Assembly (NCBI GenBank): GCA_051362555.1
Contig: CM120640.1
Location: forward strand, 59,932,788-59,996,787
Origin: Lingula anatina
Taxonomy: Eukaryota; Animalia; Brachiopoda
DNA: 64,000 nucleotides
Reading direction: 5' to 3'
Position 1 is the stretch's first letter, and each line of letters begins with the position of its first letter. Both the position numbers and the translations under genes were made by a program. The notes under the pieces were generated by a model that saw only the letters and a program-made list of their open reading frames with translations, was not told where the DNA came from and did no database searches. Positions 10,281 to 63,652 of the stretch are shown piece after piece.

Positions 10281-11120
10281 TTAGCTCATGCTTGTTGAAA
10301 TCATGACCTGACATCCACTGTTCACATGTTCCATTATTTGTTGCTTGAGGTACGCAACTTGGTCTCGGAGCTGGCCTGCTGTACTTGAGAGTTCAGTGTT
10401 AATAGATTTTAAATGGTTTACTCTTTCTTCAAGGCGCGAAATTCTCTCTAATTTACGCGTGCGGCACTTTCTGGCAGCAACGCGGTTTCTTGCCCTCTTC
10501 CTCTCCAACTTGATTCTTTCTTGGCTCTCCATGTTTATAGGTGACAGTGGAGGGGTGGTGCCAAGGCATGGGACCGTCTGGGGCTCTTCCTTCAGGTGTG
10601 TAAGCTGCATATTCTGTGGCATAGCATAGTTTGGGTGTGACTGCTGCATAGGTGGAGCATAAGAGGCTGGAGCACTCACCATGACGGTTGTTCCAGGCAG
10701 AGAAGTGCATGTTGTGGCACTAGGGGCTGTCGTACGCATAGGCTGGAGTGTTGTCAACGTGTGGGAAGCAGAGGAAGGCACGGTCCCACTGCTGGAACTC
10801 TCTTCGGGGTGCTGGTGGAGTTCTGCCAATGCGTCGACGAAGCCACGGGCGTAAGCCTCCTGTTCTTCTGTAACGTTTTTTGGATAAATAAACTGGGTCG
10901 GTGTAGGAGTGGTCACAACCATACCGTTCTGTTGGATTATCATCCTCTCGAGCTCTGGTGAACCCAACTTCAGCAAATTGAGATCTGGCGAGTTCAGAAG
11001 GCCTCCGAATTTTTGTGCCTTTGTTTTACCGGCACCAAAGTCTAAGGTCATAGCCTTTTTCAAGTCCTTTACAGCACTTCTGTTGTTAGCCATGCCGTCT
11101 TCGTAAAAAGTAGTTTCCAT
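10281..11120 (-). CDS. JUN: Transcription factor AP-1 / c-Jun (bZIP), intronless, 279 aa
   Basis: METTFYED start; delta/JNK-docking-like KKAMTLDF; [23 protein letters not shown] (S63/S73 equivalents); TTPTP; EEPQTVP; TPPLSP degron; basic region [32 protein letters not shown]; leucine zipper ending HVNSGC. Confidence 0.98.
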
Positions 11121-11314
11121 TGTGTTTCTTTCTCAGTAAGGTGCGACTCGGCTTCCTGATGAATAACTTTGTTTTGATGATTCAATTGTCTCTGTGGTAC
11201 GTGTACGTGTGTTCACAATAGCTTACCACAGCTGAAATGTCTGAAACAACTCTCTGATTCACTATTTCTGGCCGTTTGGCGCTATCTGTCCTGCCTGATT
11301 TCAAAACGTGTTTA

Positions 11315-34600: not shown

Positions 34601-37600
34601 TACCAATCCAAAACGATGGCACCTGTTCTCTTTATGACTTTAATTGTCCTGTAATTTGAAAGTAATCCTAGAGATGAATTTGATGGCAAAGCGGCCACAT
34701 TTCCACGTGGCGATAATACGCATGCGCAGAAAGCTCATTTCCTGGCAAATTCAATAACGACGTTTGCGACAACCGACTTCGTTGGGGGCTGGGAGGGGGG
34801 ATTTTTTTTTTTTCCGGAGAACGGGCGAAAATCGGTGCGCGCGCAGGATGTCATCCATAAAAAAAAAGTGTGGCCTTACCCCCTAGCAGCCTCAGTAGGC
34901 ATGACAAATATCTAAGCCTTTTAAGTTAATTGCAATTTAGCGCGAATCCGCTTGGAGATTAATCGCTCCCCAGTTAGTACGATAGGGTCTGGGAATGGTC
35001 CCTTAGAGTAGGCCATTTGCATCCCAAAGCTTCAGCACATAAGCCTGTTTTATTTGCTTCAGGAGAAATATGCTTGCTTTCAGTAACAGCCCAAAAGTGA
35101 TCAGATTTTTTTCTGATTTGTCTTTGCAGGCAAGTAACCAATGATAAACAAAAGACAAAATCCTGCAAGTACAATGTATTTGGTATGGGCACAATATTTA
35201 CAGTTTTTGTTTGTACAAGTTGCATCTTTCTTCATGATATTGTTTTTGCACAACGAGCACAGCTTTGTTAATGTTGCACCAAGAGCACAATCTTTTTAAT
35301 TTCATTCGGGTCTTGTAGCTTACTTTAATTTACTTTCCTAAATTGATAGTAATGCCATGACTTTTTTGATCTGTTGTGTTGCAGTATTGCTTAGTTTTTT
35401 GTCATTGGCGAAAGATTTTTGGTTGTACGTTTTGCTGACGATAACCTCACTTTTTGGTTTTACGTTTTGCTTAAGATAACCTCACCTTTATCTGGTGAGC
35501 AAAAAGGCCTTGGGGTGAAGGGGCTGCAATTGTATTATTGGATGTTATATAACCACAATATCATTTTGAGTATTTGGTATCATCAGTGCAAAAGGCCTTT
35601 CTAAGGTATATAAATCTTATTTGTTTGGCAATTTCCTTAACGTTTTGTTTAATGCACAAAATGATGTCAAATTGATTATCCCTTTACACCTTGTGATAGA
35701 TTACCCTCAAAATAATATCAGAAATTAATACTTCATAGAATATCAAACAAGATTACCTGATATTTTTGACCAACATAATTGTACCACCAGCGTTAGCGCT
35801 GGCGGTACACATGGTTTCGGTCCCGTCCGGATCGTTCCGCCGGCTCCGCCGGCTCCGCCGGACGGCTACCGTTACCGCTTCTCCTCCTAGACGGTAAGGG
35901 CCCCCGTACCCATCTCATGGATTTAGGTCACCTATAATCTCAACTCGTTCCACGTAAAATTTGGGCTTTGTCGGTATTGGGGTCTGGGTGTGGCACTCAT
36001 TACAATGCACCCTTGTCTAAAAATGGCAAAATTAAATGCTAATTATCTACCCTACGGAAGGAGTTATGGGAAAAATTTCTATAGACGGCTTTCCAAAAGT
36101 CATATGTGTAGATTTCAAATATACCCTTGGATTTGACCTTTGACCTTTACTTCAAGGTCAAATAGGCCAAAATTTTCAAAAAAATGAAATTTTTTACGAA
36201 AAAAAATTTTTTTGCCCTGTTATTCAGACACTACACAGACTTAACCAATAATATTATTGGAAAGTGTTACCCTTCAGGTCATCTTTCATCTCCATGAATT
36301 TGGGGTCAATCGGTGCATTTTCACGGGAGTAGCGGCCATAAGATACCGAAACTGAAAACTGTCTCTAATTCGGGAACCGTTAATGCTAGAGACCCATTCT
36401 TTTTTGCATTTTGTAGAGCATGTAAAGCCCAACACTGGAGGTGGTCTCCGTTTTTTTTGTATTCCATACGGTTTTTGAGTTACGCTGTATCAAAAAGTAC
36501 ATATTGGTGGTAAAAGCAAAATGTGCAGTACGGTAATGGATAATAAATTTTGAACTCTGGAAAAATAAAACATAAGGCTTGGCAAAGCAGACAACTTGTG
36601 TTCAAAAATGACATTATTTCATCAAATTTGAACTTCTGAAACTTCAGAGCACCTCCTATTTCAAGAATTTTGACCAAAATGACATTTTCTCTATTTTAAT
36701 TAATTTTTTCTGTACGAAATTTAAGGCACATTATGGTAACTCCAAAATTATAACATTTAGTCCCTTATATCTCCAAAACTGGCAGAGATAGGTCCATAGT
36801 TACTATTGAAGTTGAATAGGAAGTCATATACTGGCTATCTTACTGTGACCTTGAAATTGACCTTTAACCTACTTTTCACCATGAACTGAACTTTGCAAAT
36901 TTTGCTTCCCTTTTATCTCCAAAACTGGCAGAGATAGGTCCATAGTTCTTATTGAACTTGAATAGGAAGTCATATACTGGCAATCTAAATGTGATCTTAA
37001 AATTGACCTTTGACCTACTTTTCACCATGAACTGAACTTTGCAAATTTTGCTTCCCTTTTATCTCCAAAACTGGCTGAGATAGGTCCGTAGTTACTATTG
37101 AACTTGAATAGAAAGTCATATACTGGCAATCTAAATGTGACCTTGAAATTGACCTTTGACCTACTTTTCACCATGAATTGAACTTTGCAAATATTGCTTT
37201 CCTTTTATCTCCAAAACTGGCAGAGATAGGTCCGTAGTTACTATTGAACTTGAATAGGAAGTCATATACTGGCAATCTATATGTGACCTTAAAATTGACC
37301 TTTGACCTACTTTACACCATGAACTGAACTTTGCAAATTTTGCTTTTCTTTTATCTCCAAAACTGGCTGAGATAGGTCCGTAGTTACTATTGAACTTGAA
37401 TAGAAAGTCATATACTGGCAATCTAAATGTGACATTGAAATTGACCTTTGACCTACTTTTCACCATGAATTGAACTTTGCAAATTTTGCTTTCCTTTTAT
37501 CTCCAAAACTGGCAGAGATAGGTCCGTAGTTACTATTGAACTTGAATAGGAAGTCATATACTGGCAATCTATATGTGACCTTAAAATTGACTTTTGACCT

Positions 37601-40600
37601 ACTTTTCACCATGAATTGAACTTTGCAAATTTTGCTTTCCTTTTATCTTCAAAACTGGCAGAGATAGGTCCATAGTTACTATTGAACTTGAATAGGAAGT
37701 CATATACTGGCAATCTATATGTGACCTTAAAATTGACCTTTGACCTACTTTTCACCACGAATTGAACTTTGCAAATTTTGCTTTCCTTTTATCTCCAAAA
37801 CTGGCAGAGATAGGTCCGTAGTTACTATTGAACTTGAATAGGAAGTCATATACTGGCAATCTAAATGTGATCTTAAAATTGACCTTTGACCTACTTTACA
37901 CCATGAACTGAATTTTGCAAATTTTGCTTTTCTTTTATCTCCAAAACTGGCTGAGATAGGTCCGTAGTTACTATTGAACTTGAATAGAAAGTCATATACT
38001 GGCAATCTAAATGTGACCTTAAAATTGACCTTTGACCTACTTTTCACCATGAACTGAACTTTGCAAATTTTGCTTTCCTTTTGTCTCCAAAACTGGCAGA
38101 GATAGGTCCATAGTTACTCTTGAACTTGAATAGGAAGTCATATACTGGCAATTTACTGTGACCTTGAAATTGACCCTTGACCTATCTTACGAAGAACTTA
38201 AATTTGATTGTTCCATATATATTTTTTGCAAAAGTTTAAAAATTCTTGTTGATTGCATTTTAACAGCTTGTCAAGCACAAAACTGGTGGCTGTGTCCCTT
38301 ATTTTGTGTATGTGGGGGTCTATACGAATGCGCTTGCTCCAGCTGGTGGTACAATATTCGGAGGCGGTATCGCCTCTCTGATCCTCTAGTTAGTCTTAGT
38401 CCTAACAGTCACTGTCATCTGCTCCCCCTTTCCTTCATCTCCCATTAACAGTTACTCACAGTCACTTCAATAATAAGACATTCCCATCAAGAGAGAGGGG
38501 TCTTGCTATAAAAATGCAAATGACTTGATAGATAACCCTGACAATATGAGTGTTGCAGTATTTAACTCTGTGCACATATAAGAGTTCTGCCCAATGTCAG
38601 TCATATCTTTACAAGAAAGCTAAATGTAAAACTTATTTTCTTATGTGCTGTTGACATTTGTTAATTTTCGAAATAAGATGAGTTACTCAAAATGGTATGT
38701 ACAGTAATTGTCAAGTAAAAATATGTGAATAAAAATTTAATCTGTTTTTTCTTTTCAGTCGTCTGGAATAGGCAATCCATCAGTATACCATGCCTTAGTA
38801 GTGATATTCTTGGAGTTCTTTGCATGGGGGCTGCTCACAACTCCCATGATATCTGTAAGTAAACCAGGTTTCCTTTCATAGAGTTACTATTATGAATTGT
38901 GGAAAGTTGTCTATTATAATGTATGTTTTTACAGCAAGAATTGCATTAAGTTGATGAATTGATTTAAAACATGTCTGAATAGAAGATTGCTTTAAACCAC
39001 CCTGACTGATGTTTGACACTTTGTGTCTATTTTCAGTCAGATGAACACCCCATCTCTTGTTCAAATATTCTTGTATAAAATCACCAGCTTTTCTGTATTC
39101 TACTCAATGCCAGGAGGAGGCATGTAAACTGTAAATCTGATCAGATTGCATTCAGCGAGAGTCCCCCATAGGTTGATTAATCTAGGTAGAAAAATAGTTT
39201 TATTGGAATTGATGAGCCCTTAGATATAGCTCTTTTTTGTACAGGAGCCAAGTAACAGATGTTGTGCCACACTTAAATTTGAATATGTATACTCAATACT
39301 TGTATGATGATCAGTCTGTCAGTTAAATTAATATATTTCACTACCCCCCCCCCCCCCCCCCCCCCAAATGTGGGCTCAATGAAGCAAAGGTATATCCTTC
39401 TGTGATTTCAAATAAGCAACAGCTGTTGGATCTCAGCAACCCAATCAATTCAATAAAATAGTAACTTTTCTTGAAACAAATTTCCAGCAGTTGTTTGATG
39501 TATAAGCACAGCAGACTTTGGTTTGAATGATTTTCCTCTCAGGCCTTCGTATATCACAACATATTGTCCTTATTTATTTCAGGTGTTAGATGAAACATTT
39601 CCAAAGCATACTTTTCTGATTAATGGACTAATACAAGGAGTGAAGGTATGGGCAGAATGAATGGTGAAATAAACACCAATACTCATTCCTATCCTCAGAA
39701 ATTTAAAATTATTTTTTCCAACAGTTTTACTTCCTTAGTTTGAAAACTATTATTCATCTCATGATCTATACTTAGTAGAAATACCCAATATTTATGTATT
39801 TGTCATTGTTTTGCTCTAAATTATTTTCCTGAAGTTTGAAGAACATACTGTAATGTATTTGGTACATTATGACTGATCTTCTGGAAATGGTATGAGAGCA
39901 TACTAAATCCTGCATTTTAGTGCAGCCTTGAAAATCAATAATGTTAGATATTTGTACTTTGTGGAGCACTCAGCTTTTATACATATTAATTGTTGTCAGT
40001 GAGCATACATTCTCGCAAGGATATAATTATATACCAGAAATGTTTCAACACAGCCTTGATTATGATATCATATAAAATAGGACTTAAAATGGATTGAATG
40101 CTAAGCCTTCTTGGTACTCAATTTATGATGCTGTAACATGATTTATAACAAACTTTTTTTTTTTTTTACAAAATCATAAGGTCCCAAGAGTTAAAATATA
40201 TTACGCATACTATATTATTACTATAGTTAAACAATGCAACCATTTTTACCACTTCTCTTTTTGAAACTTAATCACTAAACGTTAAATAATCTGCCTATAA
40301 ATTGCTTTCAACCTGCATCATGTGAATGCATGGTGGTTTTGTACACTGGCTGAAAACCACTTCAGTATTTCCACTGTTCTAGGACATTATCTTATTCCTG
40401 GCTGTTCTGACCGTTGACTATCTTCATCAGACAGCCTATCATACAACACAACACGTCTTGTTGAGATGTAATAGCGGTAAACTTTAATAAGAAAAAATAA
40501 ACAAAATATAAGTACAAAGACAATAACAAAGTAAACTTTACAAAACTATTTCGTCTAAAAACTGAAGGCCAATTACGGTAACATAGTTGTGATGATAGTA

Positions 40601-43600: not shown

Positions 43601-46600
43601 GAAGACACTTATCGCAGATGAAGGCTACCTGCACGTGCGCCATAGACACTGATCGGCTGTCGTCTCAGTTTCAGTGCACGGAAAGGAGCAACGGTAACAC
43701 TAAGCTTCCATAGTAAAGGTTATCTGGCCGTGACAGACGCTAATCGTCGGCCATCTCTCCCTCCGTCCACTCCCGTTCTGAGCGCCAGGATCGTTTTTGA
43801 AAAACGACACTAGTTTCTGGCTGCCAGAATCGCGTTTGAAAAACGACACTACTGACGCATTATTTTATAAATGGTGCAAGGACGTGCTGTTTTGCGGCCC
43901 TAGACAACAGTACCGCTCTATCTATGGGCCATACACAGTGATCGGGTGAAAGTACGTGTATATCTTTGGTCGCAATTACCGACACTCACACATCATACAT
44001 TATGGTAACTCTAAATAGATCGTCGGGAGAAGATAACAGAAGGCCTAGCGACGAACAGACAACTTCCGGTCAAAATTGACAGAATTCCATGAAATTCGAA
44101 CTTTCGGAAGTTCTGAGCACCTCCATTTCATGAATTTCGGCCAGAACGATCTTTTCCCAAATTTAATTATTTTCTACTGTTCGAAATTCATGGCACATTA
44201 CCGTAATAGCCGTTCTACGATTGAATATAGCTTTTACAGAGGGTTTATACAATGAAATACGCCAGATAAATTGTAGTGACACATTGCGCAAACGAAAACA
44301 AACACGAAATCACCCTAAGTAAATCTGCATCGTTAAATGACACTGAACGCTATCAAAGATCGTCGCGGCAGCAATTTAAGGTATGTTTACAAACTAAATC
44401 ATATAACTTAACAAAAAAAAACCTTAAAACATACTATAAACTCAATAACTTGTCAACAAAATAAAAACGCTTACTTTAACTCCTACGGTTGACGGAGTTG
44501 GGTCTTCCTACTGAAGAACTAGAACGGCGTGTATCTTCTGAGTATCGTGTGAGTGAATGAAGATCATTCTAAGTGTAACTAACTAATATCAGAGTTTCTG
44601 GCCAATAACATCCAGCCAACACCCCTCACCAGATCGATCACGCCACTTATCCCCGTAACATGGGGGTTACTGACCAATGGAGTCCGGCCGACACCCCTCA
44701 CGAGATTGAAAGCGCCACTACCCGTTATACAATAATCTAACCCCAATACAGAGACAGCGCTAGGAGGCTAGCGAAGTGAAAGGGCTACAAATTTACAGAA
44801 AGGGGTCTTCAGATCTATACATAGAGTACTTAACATTCTCCTGGAAATAATCCTGTAGCAATTAAATAACAGTAAATAATAATAATAATAATAGTTGGTT
44901 TCAACACACTGGCAACTTCTTTGGTGAGGACACTGTCAGTTATTCACATGTATTGTTTATATGGACATGCTGTTTTTTTGTAGTTGGTGCAGGTGGGGCC
45001 AAAAATTTAAGACCATACATATTGATTCCTGTATTTCTGTTTTAAGGGCATCCTGTCATTCCTGTCAGCTCCTCTGGTGGGGGCACTGTCAGACATATGG
45101 GGTCGCAAGCCATTTCTGTTGCTTACTGTCTCTTTTACATGTGCTCCTATACCACTCATGAAGTTTAGTCCTATGTAAGTAATTTGCAATCATTAACTAA
45201 TTGGTGCCCTTTTAAATGTGCATACTCATAGCATAGTTTTTTTAACAGTTCATTATCTCATTTATTGTTTTAGGTACGTACTGTATTTTTTGGTTACAAT
45301 TAAGTAAAATATCATTATATTCAGTCATCTTAGTGTTGGGTATTTTATTTTAAATAAATGCACTAGCAACAGACTTTTATAACATCTGGTACATAAATTT
45401 GTGTGTTTTCAGGTGGTACTTTACCATGATCTCAATCTCAGGAATCTTTGCTGTCACCTTCAGTGTAGTGTTTGCCTATGTAGCTGATATCACAACAGAG
45501 GAAGACAGAAGTGCTGCTTATGGACTGGTCAGTGAAATGCATACACACAGACATGCACAGACATACAATTTTTTTCCAATTTCATACAGCAGAATGCTCA
45601 GTTCATTGTTTGCCCAAACACATGAAGGTGACTGATCTCTCCTGATGATACCTCTGAACTAAGATCTGAGTATTTGTTTCTTGAATTTTATAGGTGTCTG
45701 CAACATTTGCTGCAAGCCTTGTGACCAGTCCTGCCATTGGTGCTTACTTGGGTCACATGTACAGTGAGAAGTTAGTTGTGGCCCTAGCCACTGCAATAGC
45801 CTTACTAGATGTGCTCTTTATACTTGTGGCAGTGCCGGAGTCGTTGCCAGAAAAATTACGACCGTCTTCCTGGGGATCACACATCTCTTGGGAGAAGGCT
45901 GATCCATTTGGTGTAAGTAGATTTCTTGTGGTAATGTAGAAAGTAATATTAGGCCTACAAAATCTCTATGTGGAGCATTTTCTCACATTTTCTCTGGTGC
46001 TTAAACCCTTAGTGACATTTATTCTTCATATTCATTGTGCTTTAAAACTCATGTTTTAGAATCAGTTGAATATTTCATTAAAAAAACCCATAAACAATGT
46101 AATTATGTTTAAGTACATAGTTCTAATTGTAAGTTGAGAAAAGACTTAACTGTCTATTAAAGTTTCTTTTTCCCTGTTCTTTTCAGGCTTTGAGAAAAAT
46201 TGGTCAAGATCAGTTAATACTCATGTTGTGTGTAACAGTATTTTTATCCTATCTACCAGAAGCTGGAGAATACTCCTGTTTCTTTGTATATCTAAAACTG
46301 GTGAGTTGATTTGTTAGAAATCTACATGTCTCCACACATGAATTTTGCACCATACTGCTTGATATTTGCTAAACATCCACAATATTTGTGATACATGCTT
46401 GTATCATTTGGCCAGCATCCGTACATGTCCGTAATAATCCGCAGAGGCACTTGTTTCTCTTCCCTAGATTTTTGAGATGTCCAAAATTTTGGTTGTGGAT
46501 GATATGCGCAGCATACATACGCAAAACAAAAGTAGTACATTTGCAAAACATGCACTGTTTTCTGCTCTTATCCACAACTCCAGGGTAACCTTATGTAGAG

Positions 46601-49600
46601 CAACCCTATCACAAATGTAAATGATCTAGTTCAAATATTACAGATTTGTCAGGATTTAAACATTTCTGTTGCGTCTGATTTGCGAACATCTGCAATGGCA
46701 TCCAGTTTTAATCGTGATACATATACTGTTATACAATACATAATATGTTCGTAATTCATAGTGTTCTTATCAGCATACTATTACGGAAAATTTGTCATTT
46801 TTGGTCAATTCTGTTGCGGATGACTACGAAGGCCCGAATCCCTAGAATATTTGTATCCTCAATTCTCTCGTCAGTATGATCTGGCCTTATCCGATTACAC
46901 AATTGTAAAAAAAACTGAATGTACAAATGCCTACAATTTATCCCATAAGATAATTTGTTCAGTAATAACAGCATTTTTTTCAATCTTTAAGTTGCATGCA
47001 GTGTATACTGTACATTTTTCCAGATAATGGGATTCTCAGAAGAAGCAGTGGCATCTTTTATAGCTGTTGTAGGGGTGTTGTCAGTGTTTGCTCAGGTGAG
47101 TAAGGATAGAAAAGACACTGGAAATGCTGTAAAATATAGTGCTTTGCATAAATGAAGATTTTTTGTAAGTTTTTTAAAAACAAAAATACTATATTAACCC
47201 CATATGTTTGAATCTATTTTCAGACTGTTATCCTAGCCTTCTTAATGAAGTACCTAGGCAGTAAGCATGCTATTATAGTGGGACTTACTTGTGAGATGGT
47301 GCAGCTGGCCTGGTATGGCTTTGGTTCACAGCCTTGGTAAGTAATACCATCTAGTTTGTCATTTACAATATGCCAAATTGAGTCTATATATTTAATGGTA
47401 CAGTTGGATAAGATGAATATTTATGTATAGTATGTAGTAGAGTAATAAGATGCTTGTTTACCAGAGCGGAGGCTTGTATCAATGTTTTAATGCTAGAAAG
47501 ACAACGTTGCAGGTCAGCAGGTCAACTTGTGTTGGACTCTAATTATTACCAAAGTGAATAGGGCACCAGACATGTTTTATCACGGCAAAAGGCATACTCA
47601 CTCACAGATGTCTTAATCTTACTTGTTTCAGGATGATGTGGTCAGCTGGGGCTATTGCAGCCATGTCCAGCATTACATATCCAGCCATCAGTGCATTTGC
47701 CTCTGCTCACGCTGATGCTGACCAACAAGGTAAGTCCAATAACACATATGACTAGGTCATTTATCAACCGACTTTGTTCAATAGTAACTGCTTTTATGTT
47801 TTATATCCAATTTGGTTGACTCAAGAGTGGGTAGTTTCAGGTTTTAGATGTAAGATTTACCCTGAAGAGTGATCAGAAACACTTGCAAATTTACTGTGAC
47901 AGGCCATCTCTATTAAATTGGAAGACGGGGGTGTGAGAAGTGAGCAGGACCGAAATCTTAGTTTATGTCAGGTGTTTAATCTTATCATTCCAGGTGTAGC
48001 CCAGGGGATCATCACAGGAATCCGGGGACTGTGCAATGGGCTGGGACCAGCGCTTTATGGATTTATCTTCTTTCTGTTCCATGTTGACTTGAATGAGATG
48101 TCATCAGACGCAGAGAAGCCACTCATTCATGCAAAGCCAACTACCACCCTCCAGCCTCTCACCAATCAAACCTCTTTTGTTCACATGGAACCAATGCCAA
48201 ATAGGACAATAGATGTGAGTTCTTTTTTTAGGTCCACTGTAACAAATCAAAGATTATGCCCAAATAATATTTGATTTGATTTGTTACATTTGGTGGAATT
48301 GATAATGTTTTGGAAATTTTAATGATGGCATTACCTGTTTATTTAGACTAATGTCAGTAGGATGTGAAGTAAACTTTGCAACGTGAAAAGATTATCCAAA
48401 AATTATACATGATTATAAAAGAATTAAGAGGTGAACCTTAATTGCACTATCAGACTGTTAATGGTCCTGATATATAACAATAAGGCTCCTTTGTCACTAT
48501 CACATGCATCTATTAGATCTAAGTCTTGTGTTTGTAGCTTTTTGAATAATATTTTCTCATCCTAACATTCCTCATTATAACACTGGTGATTTTCTGCCTT
48601 TTTCCTCTGTATTTTGGCTGCAAGAACATTGTCATTTATTCATGGCTGCAGGTCTCTTTTCACAAGTGTTTTCACTCACAAAATTACCACCTTGTCCAGT
48701 GACAGTCACAAAACCCTATCCAATTTACTCGACATGTTCATTTGGTTAGCAGTTTGGCAAAAAATCTGTTTTACTGAATGGATACCTGGTTCTCCAGCTT
48801 TCTGATGCTGGTCTCCTTCATCTTCGCGAGTTCTGTGTGGATGATAGATCCAAATTGCAGTACAAAGAAGTTTTATGCAATTTATTTGTCTTACACAGTC
48901 GTTTTCCATGTATATGGCAACTTAAAGCATCTATGAAATACTGGTAGCTCTTGCCAACGCTTCATTGTGTTCCAGTGAGCTATTTGCCTCTACACTAGTT
49001 AGCTGCTTTATCTTCTTCTATTGACCAGTAGGGATGAAGTAGGTGCAAATTCTGATGCCCTTACCTGTGATGTTAATCTATGTCCAGTTGCAACTTTTTA
49101 TCAAGAAATAATTTTTAGCTTTTTATTAGACTATTTAATGACTGTTGATTTTGTATTATATTTCACAAAAATAGATTGTCTTAATAGATTGTTAAAATAA
49201 TTACATTTTTCTATTGAGTTTAAACCTTTTTGTTTCTTTTCAGTCTGTAGTTCCAGGTCCTCCATTTGCTTTTGGTGCCATTCTAGTCATCTTAGCCCTC
49301 CTTGTGGCAATATTCATTCCAGAAAATCCACACACAAATCTAAACAAAAGAACTTATAGTCATGACAAAGGTAAAACTAAAAAATAAATAATCTTGCTTG
49401 TCAATTATAGGTTTACTTATCCTTTAATTGTACTGATTTTATTCAAAACTTTGTTTTTGTGATGAGTTTTATAAACTATGTGAATCATTTGTATTTGTTT
49501 GCTGTTAGTTATTCATTTAAGATGTGTACTTAATTTAATATCAACTGAAGTAAAACGTAGTATTTTTCATTTCTAAAATATTTCTATTATTTGCATTTCA

Positions 49601-55774: not shown

Positions 55775-56782
55775 ATGGCAGCGTTTTATCCCCCGTGCTC
55801 AGGTCTTTCCGAAGAGCTGACAAGATTGTTTAGGTAAGAATACGAGCGTTTAAGATGTAACATTAAGTACGTCTTTCTTAGTGATACTCGAATTGATTTG
55901 CTTGAAGTAAGAAAAATACAATTTTTAAATTAAAATTGAGAAGAAAACTTTCGTTACTTCAAATATGAAATAATCTTATTTTCAGCTTGCCACCTCCGAG
56001 CAGAGCCTCAGTTTGCTTAAAGCAGGCAGATGAGCAGTCGTTAGTTGATGTTCGTGTTCCCCGTGTAGACAAGGAATTTGACATAGATCCCTTTGATGAC
56101 TGGGAAAGAAACGGCAGGTCAAGTGACATTGACGAGTTCGACAGGCTGTTGTGGGCCCTGAGAGAGAACTGCAGTGCCAACTCCGGGAATCAGCGCCGCC
56201 GGACAAGTAGCAGCGGGAGTAGCCACAGCGGCGGCCGCGCCGACCAGAACCAGGGGATGGGGCGCAGTGTCTGTGTGTTCTGCCGCAACAACAACGAACC
56301 AAAGTCGTGGTTTACCAGTCACCGCCTGAAGGATGACCAGGGACACGTCGTTTGCCCTGTCCTGTCTGCTTACACCTGCCCTTACTGTGGAGCCACTGGA
56401 TCTAAGGCGCATACTAAGAAATATTGCCCAAAGAGAACCCCAAATACTTTACAGGTTGGTAAAATTTATTTTTACTATATGTTATTTTCCCACGCATCTA
56501 CTAAAATATTTTGGAGATCGCATTGAAACATTATATCTGCTTTGTTATTTTGTATCTTCTAATATTACTATCACCTACCAATTTTTTGTATAAATGAAAA
56601 AAATTAATCGGACAAGAAAGTGAACGTGAAAAGGTATAGGGAATGTTCCCCCCAGTTATGCACATGGTAATATCATTATGATATTCTAAATCTCACCACA
56701 TTAGAAAATGAAGATGTTGAAATTTTATTTTGTTGAATATTATTTGTTTCAGGAGATTGGGAAAGCCACTGCCTTGTGTTGA
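55775..56782 (+). CDS. nanos: Nanos (2x CCHC zinc finger), 3 coding exons: 55775-55833, 55986-56454, 56753-56782 (~185 aa)
   Basis: [43 protein letters not shown] is the Nanos domain. Exon 1 (AAATGG start, AG|GTAAG donor) is phase-compatible with the TTCAG acceptor at 55985. The last exon is less certain because an alternative donor lies 4 nt downstream. Confidence 0.92.
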
Positions 56783-58946: not shown

Positions 58947-61204
58947 TTAGTGTCAGCTACATTAAACCAAATGGCCACCTGAAGCAGACACTTCCTGCAT
59001 AGGAATTTCCTTATGGATGCATTTCTTATCAAGATTGGAATATAGCTAGACCTCCTTTTTTTACAGTGCATTAATTTAGATCTGAACATGATCTGTGAAG
59101 ATGTGACACATTCACGCAGTTCCAAAGAGATGCAGCAAATGACACTTCGATTTTGCGCGGAAGGGGGCTTGCTGCAAATGATATTCAGCTCATAAGATAT
59201 ATGTTAATTTGAACAGCCAATGTTACCAAAAATTAAACTTTGAAAAAGATTAAAACAGTCTGCAAAATGAAATGATTTCTAATTTTATTTATGTCCAGAC
59301 TATTCACAAGTAACAACCCTAGTAGATTAGCTGGTACACCAAGTGCTAGAATTGACTTCTTGGTTCTAACATATGCATACAGATCTGCATATTTTTCCAC
59401 ATTCAATGCTAGTCACTTAATTTACAAATGAATACACTTGGACTAGCAATACCTTACAGCAGAGCTAATCAAGTAAAAGGATAAAACTTTACTAAAACCA
59501 AGCTACATCAAACAGACCTGACCTAGTCCTTCCAGTGTGATACTCAAAGAGCACCACTGAATTAGACATAAATGCCCCTTGTTTCAATGTGAGAACATGA
59601 AGGGTTCAATTCATTACTTAGTACTCGGAATATCAAAGATATGCACAAGTCACTGGATAACTTAACTAATACTCAACTTAAAAGGAACTAACTTAACTTT
59701 TGTGAAATAGAAAACCCAAACTATTCACATTTTACTTCATATTAAGTGTTTTTACCTTTCCCACATTAAGATGTATTAATCATGATAGTTAAATTTAATG
59801 GTCAATTGATTGCACAATTATAAGATAGCAGCGATTGTACCTTAAAATGTTCTTAATCTTATTTTCAATCACTTCTAAGCGAAATTTTACTTTTACTACA
59901 ACAACACAAAAGGACTTCTTTAAAGAGCTAATTCTTTGTAGCTAGAATTCACTTGTATCACAGTAGAAAGGAACCATACAGTTACAGGTAGTAATGCAAG
60001 CTATAAGTAAATAACTTAGGCAGGCACATTGTACAGCCATATAGTAGTGGAGCTTAAAACATGCTACTTACAGACTGATTTTAACTCCTCAGTTTTTAGC
60101 TACTTAAAACTAGAAAAGAAGCCCCATATTTGTGATGAAAAGTCTTATTGGTCTTTCATAATCAACATTTTACATAACCCTGTCATAGCCAAATTCTATA
60201 CAGGATATCAAGAAGTCATCCAGGATATGCAGATGGCGTAATGCAATCTGAAAGAACTGTGAATCTTTACTGCTTCTACTGAACTACTCAAGTTCCATAC
60301 ACAAGCAGGGAAAATAATTAAGTCTCCATTTTTCAACATGTCTATGACTTTCAACATTTGAAAAAAGATCAAATTATATGTATATTGCACAAATCTCATT
60401 AATTGCTGACTGTTTTATAAATTAATCTAAAAAAAAAATTCAACAAAGAGTTACATTGTACATGTGCAATTTACAAGCTTTAGATTACACAATCACATGA
60501 CTTCAGTATCAAAGGTTAGTCTACAAGGCAGCATGTTAACTCCATCGGGACCTATAGCAGCAAAATGGAAAGGTCCACTAGTCACTAAGCTTACCTACCC
60601 TTGATTTCCAAATCAATTATGACTTTTCTATAGACTACATTAAATTGTTTATTTTTAAGTTATAACTAAAGCACCATCTAAACAAAGTGTGTCTTACTGT
60701 TTGGATAATGATACATCCAAAAACAGAACATTTTCACGAAAGAAGTCTGATTTTGACCTGAATAAAATATGAGGATATAAGAACAATTATTTCTAAAAAA
60801 AAAAAATCCACAAAATTGTGAAATTAAGGTCAATTCTCTCTTAAAGACATGTTACAGCACCCAACTCCTGAAGATGAGTGTTCAACCTTCTTTAATTATG
60901 CTTCACATATGTATGCTCTCCTTCCTGCTATTCTGCACCACTTTTAACTGATCTTCACCTAACTGGGAACTGCTTCTGCAGCTGACTTACACCTGAACTT
61001 TAGTTACAACAAAACATGAGACGGGGTTATGACTTACAAACACCACTACACATTGTATTCTTCAAACTATTACAACACAATGTAAGACAACTTTTACTAC
61101 AGCAGTCATTCCCACTCAGGTTGTCAGCTGTGTAGGGTTGGTGTGGAAGCATCCATTGGTTTTGGGAGTATTTCTCTCAGCATACATGTCCATGGTAACA
61201 AATC

Positions 61205-63652
61205 TCAGTCCTTCTTCTTCTCATCCTTGCCCTTGACAACATCCTGCTTGCTGTCCTTAGTTGTCCCGTTTTCCTTCACCTCCTCCTTCACCCTCCTCAG
61301 AGCATCCCACATCCCTCCCATGAACACTGCACAGAACAAGTTCTCAAATGGAAGGAATGGATCATGGATACCCAAGAGGAGAGAGGACAGACGGAAGTAG
61401 ATGAAGAAGATCACAATGCCGAAGTGGATAACAGCGTGGGGTGCTGTTAGGTAGTTCATACGCTCCAACACAAAGATGAGGGCTGCCGCAATACAAGCCT
61501 TTGTAGTGCTGCAATGATAATGTAATTACATGGAACACTGTCATGATAGCATTATAAAATCAATCCTTACTCTCCTTGCCCATTATTGAGGATTTTTACT
61601 AAAAGAAGCAGTATGAAGAGACATTTTCAATTCATAATTCAAAAGACAAACTTTATTTGAGTGAGAAAACCCTAAGTGATAAAAATACATGATACAGCAA
61701 TTGCAGTGTCATTACATTGTAAGATATCTTTTGTTTCTAATTTAAAAAAAAACAATGTGGGCCAGTTGTGTTATGCATTAGAAATCATATATATATATAC
61801 ATATCTAACACTATCTAATTCAAAATCATTTTCGGATATATTGTCATATAAGAGTACAAATGAAGCTCCAATCCTTTTTTTTCTGATTAAAATAGGTTGT
61901 TTTCATTAAACCATATGATTTAACTGTGCACATATTCCACCAACCCCTGCATTATACTCACAACGATGGCTGAAGGAGCTCGTTAGTGGTAGGGATCCAC
62001 AAACCTCTCACGAGGCGTTCAAAGTTTTTGATGACATAAGAACCACTTCCTATAAAAATTATGCACAATTCAAATTGCTGAGCAACTGACTTGTGGTCCT
62101 CTTTGATGACGTGTCCTTCCCATTGAAAACTATGAGGAGTAATTTCACTTTTGTTTGTCTCAGTCAGATATGATCTTCCCAGAATTAGAAAATATCTCTT
62201 ACTTAATGCATTTTCATCGCAGTAAAATTAACAGAAATTTTGCAACCTCAAACAGTAAAGGTCTACTGAAAATCATTCGCTGTTATGTCATTGTCATTGG
62301 GAAAGAGTGCATCACCACAGAGTGCCCAGGAACAGATGGAATCAAGACAAATAAATTTCACATCTTCATTGATTCCATCTTCCTATAATCTTTCAACAAA
62401 AGCTTGATCAAAAAGTAATCAATTTAATCAAGTCTTTGTTGTTTTCAATGTGATGAACATAACAAACCTTATGTACTTACAATGTTGGTAATAAAATTTC
62501 ATTAACTGTTGGAATCCACACTCCTCGTACCATACGCTCAAAGCTTCTCATAAAAGCAGCACCACCTCCTACAAAATCCAATGTGCTCACAAATCACACA
62601 AAACAATGGTGGGAAAGGAAAGTGCAGGGAGAGATGCAGGGTCCACAGTGCAGTCTGCCAAGGACAGTGCAACACTGGGGGGAAGGAAACAGCACAAAAG
62701 TGCAGGTAAACAGATAAGAAAACAGAAAAGAAAGAAAAATTCAAACTGCTACTCAACAAAATAACAACATGATAAACATATACAATGGTGACTTAAAAAC
62801 AGTATATTGCTCTGATGCAACACTTACTCAGCAAATATGAACATGCAGATGTGTAACAAAATGTCTTTGTAACTTGCTTCCACAATGAAAAATCAGATTA
62901 ATTACTCAGCCATTGGAAAAATTATACAAAAAATCTTAAATTATTGTTGATGTGACATCAACTCCCTTTCATACTTTCAATGATTCGTAACAGTTGCAGA
63001 TGTCAAACCACTGCCCAGTTGTAACAACTATTTCATTGCTAACCACTGCCCAGCAGTTGCAGTTATAATAATAAATGCAATGTATAACCATTACTTACTT
63101 GTAACAGCTACCACAATGTTCATCTATTCCCAAGTTGTTACAACTAACAATGTTCAGCAGTAACAATTAACACAACACTTAACTGCTGACCAGCTGTAAC
63201 TACTAACACAATGTATAACCATTGCCTAGTTATAACAACTAGCACAATGTCCAAACATTGCACAGCTGTTACAACTAGCACAATGGTCAACCACTACCCA
63301 GTTTTGACAACTCCAACTGCACCCCCACCTCCAACAATTGACAGCACTTTTGAAGCAAGAAATATAATAGAAACATTTCCATTATGAAGGCCATGACATC
63401 TGACCGACTTCCTAATCATGTGAAAGCTTGTAAGGCTGATTATTTGTTTTCTGTTGCATTTACAAACCTCGTGACACAGCGATTATAATCATTAAAAGGT
63501 AAGCATTTGGATGAAGCTTTGCAGTGATGGCAACTCCGTCATGAACTTGTTTGGCCCTCCGAATTTCAACAGCAAGGAATGCAACTACACGGAGGGGCAA
63601 TAATCTCATAGTTTTGTAGCAGATATCCATAGGTGAGTAGTTGATCAAGTAC
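61205..63652 (-). CDS. TMEM38: Trimeric intracellular cation channel (TRIC/TMEM38), 3' partial: exons 63652-63468, [62568-62481 or 62049-61962], 61508-61205
   Basis: (W)YLINYSPMDICYK..LPLRVV..EIRRAKQVHDGV..AKLHPNAYLLMIII; FER.VRG.WIPT.NE; TKACIAAALIF..HFGIVIFFIYFRLSSLLLGIHDPFLPFENLFCAVFMGGMWDAL; C-terminal KKKD* dilysine ER-retrieval motif. Confidence 0.92.
61962..62049 (-). CDS. TMEM38: TMEM38 alternative exon B (88 nt)
   Basis: ttttatag|GA...TT|gtgag; encodes (G)SGSYVIKNFERLVRGLWIPTTNELLQPS(F). Confidence 0.9.
62481..62568 (-). CDS. TMEM38: TMEM38 alternative exon A (88 nt)
   Basis: ttttgtag|GA...TT|gtaag; encodes (G)GGAAFMRSFERMVRGVWIPTVNEILLPT(F). Confidence 0.9.
62987..63312. repeat. 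Degenerate 36-bp minisatellite in a TMEM38 intron
   Basis: About 9 units resembling GTAACAACTAGCACAATGTATAACCACTGCCCAGTT. Confidence 0.75.

Follow-up and report, generated by a model that had tools for sequence, protein, structure and literature searches.

We consider it probable, at roughly 0.7, that in the TMEM38/TRIC gene of Lingula anatina two adjacent exon pairs, 4a/4b and 5a/5b, each tandem-duplicated and each mutually exclusive, switch mostly in concert, yielding either a typical channel (4a+5b) or a divergent one (4b+5a) with likely altered gating. The gene lies on the minus strand of the window, that is, the whole 64-kb stretch of DNA analysed. The exon names are working labels, since the window does not reach the 5' part of the gene. 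Its assignment to the TRIC family rests on PF05197, precomputed on records P0003/P0004, and on matches to six TRIC sequences of the PDB with E values from 2e-88 to 3e-46, the strongest being 5egi (E 2e-88). The peptide of the last exon is 100% identical to the L. anatina RefSeq protein 'TRIC type 1B.1' (isoforms X1 and X2). RefSeq holds four Lingula isoforms of 285 amino acids each (XP_013398594-597, isoforms X1-X4), which represent the four pairings of 4a/4b with 5a/5b; exon 4b is found in isoforms X2/X4 (P0004, P0124) and exon 4a in isoforms X1/X3. The isoform sequences are therefore already known as automatic annotation, without mention of exclusivity, coupling, lysine loss or sharing across phyla. 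The features concerned are the following.

63468..63652, minus strand: exon 4b, 185 nt; helix M4, flanked by the end of M3 and the first half of M5; VEIxRxxQ in place of KEVxRxxK
63568..63570, minus strand: Val122 codon GTT, replacing the lysine aligned to C. elegans TRIC-B2 Lys130 (PIP2 head-group binding)
63547..63549, minus strand: Gln129 codon CAA, replacing the gate lysine (chicken TRIC-A K129, C. elegans TRIC-B1 Lys136)
62569..63467, minus strand: intron between 4b and 5a, 899 nt, GT..AG
62481..62568, minus strand: exon 5a, 88 nt; M5 kink, second half of M5 and M5-M6 loop
62050..62480, minus strand: intron between 5a and 5b, 431 nt; no joint across this intron alone was listed
61962..62049, minus strand: exon 5b, 88 nt
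61509..61961, minus strand: intron between 5b and the last exon, 453 nt, GT..AG
61205..61508, minus strand: coding part of the last exon, constitutive; M6, M7, C-terminal tail and stop

Elsewhere in the window, three open reading frames presumably encode, judging from their translations, c-Jun (10281-11132, minus strand), an MFSD14/HIAT1-type transporter (45354-48274, plus strand) and nanos (55969-56526, plus strand). Near-identical ORF-like units at 37161-38113 probably form a tandem repeat.

The two 88-nt exons at 62481..62568 and 61962..62049, reported in a preliminary description of this DNA, hold up in every respect: the peptides match, the phases are the same, and each exon is preceded by AG and followed by GT. 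The copies are identical at 55 of 88 nucleotides (62.5%) and encode the same residue at 15 of 28 full codons, with neither indel nor stop. Purifying selection on both copies, as had been proposed, is supported by a saturated pS of 0.81 against a pN of 0.26 and by synonymously different codons at 11 of the 15 conserved residues. In a tblastn search of the window, the 5b peptide matched 5a at E 1.7e-7, and the next match outside the exons of the gene had an E value of 1.0. Translation of the spliced combinations confirmed that either exon 5 alone gives an in-frame protein of 285 amino acids. With both included, translation ends within 5b at a stop 57 nt upstream of the last junction, and skipping of both leads to an early stop within the last exon.

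Splicing was followed in eight of the nine raw-read RNA runs of the species (run labels are coded), sampled at about 6% (runs X1-X6) or 25% (runs X7-X8); a joint was listed in a run when supported by at least three reads from two starts. The joints 63468>62568, 63468>62049, 62481>61508 and 61962>61508 were all found in reads. Joints to the last exon from 5a and 5b, respectively, numbered 58/0, 80/2, 67/0 and 16/231 in runs X1-X4 and 12/185, 2/8, 7/17 and 20/26 in runs X5-X8, for totals of 262 and 469 over the eight runs. At this threshold, neither the joint 62481>62049 (5a>5b) nor the double-skip joint from 4b to the last exon was listed in any of the eight runs. Each exon 5 is thus spliced in and the two are used exclusively, as the preliminary description had supposed. 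By the usual rule, a message with its stop in the last exon is not a target of decay. The double-skip message should therefore escape decay and yet its joint is unlisted, which suggests a true exclusive choice. Stitching of haplotypes or paralogues in tandem by the assembly, or a dead pseudo-exon, has in its favor the 1.6% heterozygosity given in the genome paper (PMC4595640, in part); the probability of such an artefact is negligible, since an exon identity of 62.5% is far beyond that of alleles, intronic reads cover the introns in runs X5, X6 and X8, and the junction reads, which join each exon to identical flanks, already refute it.

The choice between the exons varies by sample, as had also been anticipated: the share of 5a was 98-100% in three runs and 6-43% in the other five, a range of 6-100% in which study, genotype and life stage are confounded with the isoform ratio. 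Runs X1-X3 have one mixed site in common (61382) and could stem from a single source, and runs X7 and X8 represent a diverged population with many UTR differences. An alternative is that the ratio depends on genotype or population and not on tissue or stage, with 4b and 5a being relaxed, near-neutral duplicates. Ratios do split by study (P1 vs P2 vs P3), and 4b and 5a are farther from relatives than their counterparts (mean identity of 0.44 for 4b vs 0.54 for 4a, and 0.53 for 5a vs 0.60 for 5b). This explanation is nevertheless very unlikely given that synonymous sites are saturated at a pN of 0.26 without indel or stop, that both forms occur within single runs, that both are spliced in the X7/X8 population despite its differences at many UTR sites, and that exon 5 swaps are found in three phyla (see below).

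Several further observations concern these samples. Over 60400-63652 of the window, runs X7/X8 show many fixed UTR differences, which point to another population or a cryptic species; among the changes listed, five fall in the last coding exon and are all synonymous, and those in 4b comprise one synonymous change and one A121V. Read depth in the 3' UTR (60830-60900, minus strand) drops about 11-fold in run X1 and 3.5-fold in run X4 and not at all in X7 and X8. An ATTAAA at 60896 lies near this drop, and alternative polyadenylation is possible.

The preliminary description held that exon switching yields two channel types from one gene, with a division between muscle and non-muscle as a speculative possibility. 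The exon 5 pair it was based on is real, but a second exclusive pair just upstream was missed: the upstream exon ending at 63468 is 4b, one member of the pair 4a/4b. That reading was incomplete, and the larger functional change is that of the 4a/4b pair coupled to 5a/5b. Exon 4a was absent from the 64-kb window in a tblastn search, and we infer that its DNA lies upstream. The 4a and 4b proteins align without gaps over residues 95-155 with 56% identity (27 of 61 residues differ); their homology rests on this protein alignment, the genomic length, phase and splice sites of 4a lying outside the window.

The two pairs are largely switched together. Joints of 4b>5a numbered 33, 47, 29, 12, 8, 1, 9 and 12 in runs X1-X8, while those of 4b>5b were 0 in X1 and X4, unlisted in X2, X3, X5 and X6, and 11 and 9 in X7 and X8, respectively. 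Loose ends at position 62051 whose sequence matches the end of 4a (4a>5b) amounted to 107, 88, 4, 11 and 4 in runs X4-X8 and were unlisted in X1-X3, these counts not being strictly comparable with joint counts. No 4a>5a loose ends were seen among the rows listed (20 of 30 in one set and all in the other), and the loose ends behind 4b correspond to exon 3 with 100% agreement. In run X4, all 12 of the 4b joints led to 5a against a background of 16 of 247 (binomial p 5e-15), and in run X5 the 4b-5a coupling had p<1e-8 even when two unlisted reads were allowed. Six runs (X1-X6) thus pair 4b with 5a or 4a with 5b, and X7 and X8 also use 4b+5b. Alternatively, the two pairs could be regulated independently, the apparent coupling arising from a mixture of cell types that switch both, so that the protein parts need not match. 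The X7 and X8 runs, where 4b+5b is as common as 4b+5a, the presence of all four combinations in RefSeq, and the nemerteans and annelids, in which exon 5 swaps occur and exon 4 swaps were not seen, are in line with this view; the strict pairing in six runs speaks against it. Independent regulation is conceivable but somewhat doubtful, and would alter only the proposal of a matched module, not exclusivity.

The most prominent feature of 4b is the loss of two lysines from the family motif KEVxRxxK, which reads VEIxRxxQ in 4b (K122V and K129Q) and is kept in the 4a isoforms. Lysines 122 and 129, Gly152 and Lys155 are retained in 196, 196, 197 and 194 of 197 distinct relatives, respectively, and are replaced in 4b by Val, Gln, Ala and Arg; Gln at position 129 occurs in none of the 197 (non-Lingula exon 4 segments). 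These conservation counts leave out 24 of 291 proteins (those shorter than 160 or longer than 400 amino acids, the two pieces used as queries, and seven models that aligned poorly), and the homolog sets consist of the best 120 of 214 and the best 120 of 513 matches. Exon 4b retains E123 and R126 and gains an arginine at 125, three residues (i+3) from position 122, that is unique in comparison with 136 relatives. No exon 4 swap was seen outside Lingula among the proteins compared. A search with residues 95-190 of 4b+5a, a weak one that needs shared exact words, returned only Lingula among 55 candidates. Apparent exon 4 swaps in mussels were rejected as a gapped gene model (P0219) or sequences of different species.

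The TRIC fold is retained in the predicted structure of 4b+5a, a model guided by 112 relatives with a pLDDT of 83 and a TM score of 0.91 to 5egi (C. elegans TRIC-B1) by target length. Helix breaks at residues 63 and 157 fit the seven-helix fold with kinked M2 and M5. According to the model, exon 4 encodes M4 as a long helix (112-140) plus the first half of M5, and exon 5, from the kink glycine 156 onward, encodes helix 158-170 and the M5-M6 loop; together with the PDB alignments, this agrees with the earlier placement of the exon 5 pair at the M5 kink and the following loop. Both exon 5 copies retain G156, G158, R167, W173 and E179. At the glycine cluster of the kink, G156 and G158 are present in both, and the third position, which is Gly in 98 of 162 distinct relatives, is Tyr in 5b and Ala in 5a; in C. 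elegans, the M5 kink glycines are G163/G165/G167, and C-kink glycines are named in the portions seen of PMC9899828 and PMC5143425. Exon 5a has small kink residues (GGGAA, with Ala-Ala where 5b has Tyr160), retains E166, and carries Leu at position 182, which is mostly Gln in relatives, as it is in 5b. The copy nearer to relatives is 5b, which shares up to 25 of 30 residues with scallop.

Positions K122, R126 and K129 align to Lys130, Arg134 and Lys137 of C. elegans TRIC-B2 and to K122, R126 and K129 of chicken TRIC-A, and PDB chain 6iz1 carries Gln at the aligned position 129. The KEVxRxxK motif of eukaryotic TRIC channels is named in passages of PMC9899828 and PMC5143425. As described in part of PMC5401562, the PIP2 head is bound by Lys130 and Arg134 under a cap formed by the M5-M6 loop, M5 lines the lipid tails, and Lys136/137 lies at the pore centre. 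In chicken TRIC-A, K129A is reported to be constantly open and K129Q mostly closed (excerpts of the review PMC7940156). By analogy, the lysine-less 4b isoform likely gates differently or stays mostly shut. Exon 4 would bring M4 with the gate and lipid-binding lysines and exon 5 the kinked half of M5 with the loop capping the PIP2 head, so that the two exons may act as one lipid-gate module, swapped as a matched set. The prediction for the 4b+5a form is that it stays mostly closed or escapes the normal control by PIP2 and voltage. Limits on this reading are Arg125 and Arg155 of 4b, which could restore the lost charge, the loose coupling in runs X7 and X8, and the RefSeq models with 4a+5a.

It is also imaginable, if unlikely, that 4b+5a conducts normally, with Arg125, Arg155 and the 5a kink compensating for the lysines, and that the switch tunes lipid preference or conductance. 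The i+3 placement of an arginine unique among 136 relatives and the retention of E123, R126, G156, G158, R167, W173 and E179 would suit such a channel; moreover, 4b+5a is nearly the sole form in runs X1-X3, and a tissue with nothing but a dead channel is harder to explain. Loss of a pore lysine can have the opposite effect and open the channel, as K129A is reported to do, but the exact K129Q change is reported to keep TRIC-A mostly closed (both from the same part of PMC7940156), and four near-invariant sites are altered at once in 4b.

Regarding the way exclusivity is enforced, two candidate mechanisms gained no support. Steric exclusion needs an intron or a donor-to-branch distance of less than about 50-60 nt; for its simple form, the 431-nt intron between 5a and 5b is too long. 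As to docking/selector pairing of the Dscam type, shuffles did as well as the best intron duplexes in 18 of 40 and in 3 of 40 cases, so that the pairings were not above chance. The intron between 4b and 5a contains a pyrimidine-rich tract before 5a (62589-62768, 71% pyrimidine) with four TGCAC and a degenerate 36-nt tandem repeat of about eight partial copies (about 63000-63313). This tract and the repeat constitute the only lead and are compatible with protein-mediated control. A splicing factor, cell-type- or stage-specific, would likely toggle the adjacent 4b-5a block via the intervening intron, with decay of the rare double-inclusion message as a possible backup.

The exon 5 switch is common to other lophotrochozoans, for which the preliminary description had suggested a search: protein pairs that differ in exon 5 only were found in the nemerteans Lineus (XP_064626466/7) and Tubulanus (XP_074640898-901), in the annelid Owenia (CAH1776252/3) and among annelid-like records. 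The pairs of Lineus, Tubulanus, Owenia and P0049/P0149 are 100% identical outside exon 5 and 37-53% identical inside, and the pair P0071/P0154, with P0079 in the same group, is 98% identical outside and 43% inside. In a tree built without exon 5, P0049/P0149 and P0071/P0154/P0079 group with Capitella and Paralvinella (support 89). Mollusc and ecdysozoan proteins showed no exon 5 swap in the collection compared, which consists of proteins and not of genomes. The exon 5 copies fall into two types: one with Tyr at 159-160, E166 and Q182, the other with small kink residues, a residue mostly other than Glu at 166, and position 182 occupied by Lys, Arg or Leu. In the tree of exon 5, which has 30 columns and long-branch warnings, the Tyr-type copies of annelids and nemerteans group together (95/82), no species has its two copies as sisters, and Lingula 5a and 5b are unplaced. 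The AU test rejected only the grouping of all annelid copies in one clade (p 0.043 without correction for the seven tests made), the other p values being 0.28 for Lingula 5a+5b as sisters, 0.59 for all alternative copies with 5a, 0.12 for the four nemertean copies and 0.11 for the Owenia pair. One old duplication is favored for annelids and nemerteans because the Tyr-type copies group across phyla and no own-species pairs are seen. The exon 5 pair is thus likely old and would trace to an annelid-nemertean, perhaps brachiopod, ancestor. By these sequence comparisons, an independent duplication of exon 5 in Lingula would also fit the data (sisters p 0.28). A more far-reaching proposal, which we regard as tentative, is that an ancestral exon 5 switch of annelids, nemerteans and brachiopods was joined in Lingula by the coupled switch, which in certain cell types or stages would put a gate-less (K122V, K129Q), non-conducting pseudo-channel, made by splicing and with a role other than counter-ion flux, in place of the conducting channel.

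Other variation was seen in the same protein set. In Tubulanus, P0038/P0039 and P0040/P0126 differ over residues 1-45 by alternative first exons that swap His for Asn, a second exon switch lining the pore: the site aligns with the pore-centre His34/35 of C. elegans and with Lingula H26. Of 267 proteins, 210 have His and 36 have Asn at this position, Asn being found in many annelid-like rows. The TRIC gene may thus duplicate exons repeatedly. The crustacean isoforms P0073/P0136, P0131/P0132/P0135 and P0180/P0181 vary in the C-terminal tail and not in exon 4 or 5. Two further models are possible artefacts: P0005 (Diploscapter), of 569 amino acids, has two TRIC copies end to end, and P0247 (Patella X2), of 186 amino acids, stops exactly at the end of exon 5, which might alternatively hide a missed exon.

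Tandem-duplicated exclusive exons that retune gating are known from AMPA receptors (flip/flop), CaV1.2 (8/8A) and NaV (5N/5A). Those exons keep the essential gate residues, whereas in Lingula 4b these are replaced. In myosin heavy chain, mutually exclusive exons take the place of vertebrate paralogues, vertebrates and nematodes having paralogues and other bilaterians exon clusters, with losses in some lineages (PMC3912159, in part); this is another gene family, and the Lingula case concerns an ion channel of the ER with two adjacent, largely coupled clusters. The Lingula protein is like other TRIC/TMEM38 channels (5egi, 5eik, chicken TRIC-A 6iyu and frog TRIC-B 6iz3) in sequence and predicted fold, and 4a+5b keeps KEVxRxxK, but the 4b forms are without both motif lysines, and diversity is created by exon switching instead of paralogues. 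Vertebrate TRIC-A and TRIC-B likewise provide two TRIC types in different contexts (passages of PMC11381013), and both keep KEVxRxxK, unlike Lingula 4b. The parallel drawn earlier with TRIC-A and TRIC-B survives as an analogy but does not extend to the exons themselves, neither of which maps to TRIC-A or TRIC-B: by hand count on alignments, 5b is identical to chicken TRIC-A and frog TRIC-B at 17 and 16 of 30 residues, and 5a at 16 and 13. Engineered chicken TRIC-A K129Q (6iz1) has the same substitution at the aligned position; in Lingula, by contrast, Q129 is natural, is dominant in three runs, and is accompanied by K122V and about 40 other changes over two exons.

The literature searched, consisting of main texts, contained no report of exclusive exons in TRIC; splicing databases such as MetazExp may hold such events. 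A splice switch is likewise unmentioned in the portions consulted of PMC7940156, PMC9899828, PMC11381013, PMC10522464 and the Lingula genome paper PMC4595640. The role of TRIC channels is debated between that of a counter-ion channel and that of also regulating calcium-release channels (PMC7940156, in part). A natural K129Q isoform that is nearly the sole form in some samples would allow a direct test of this role, for which the same gene supplies a matched conducting form as control, and the four isoforms would provide a 2x2 set for separating the contributions of the M4 lysines and of the M5 kink and loop to lipid gating. Found in three phyla, the exon 5 swap represents an overlooked splice switch of ER calcium handling, possibly of Cambrian age, and may serve as a character for gene evolution in lophotrochozoans.
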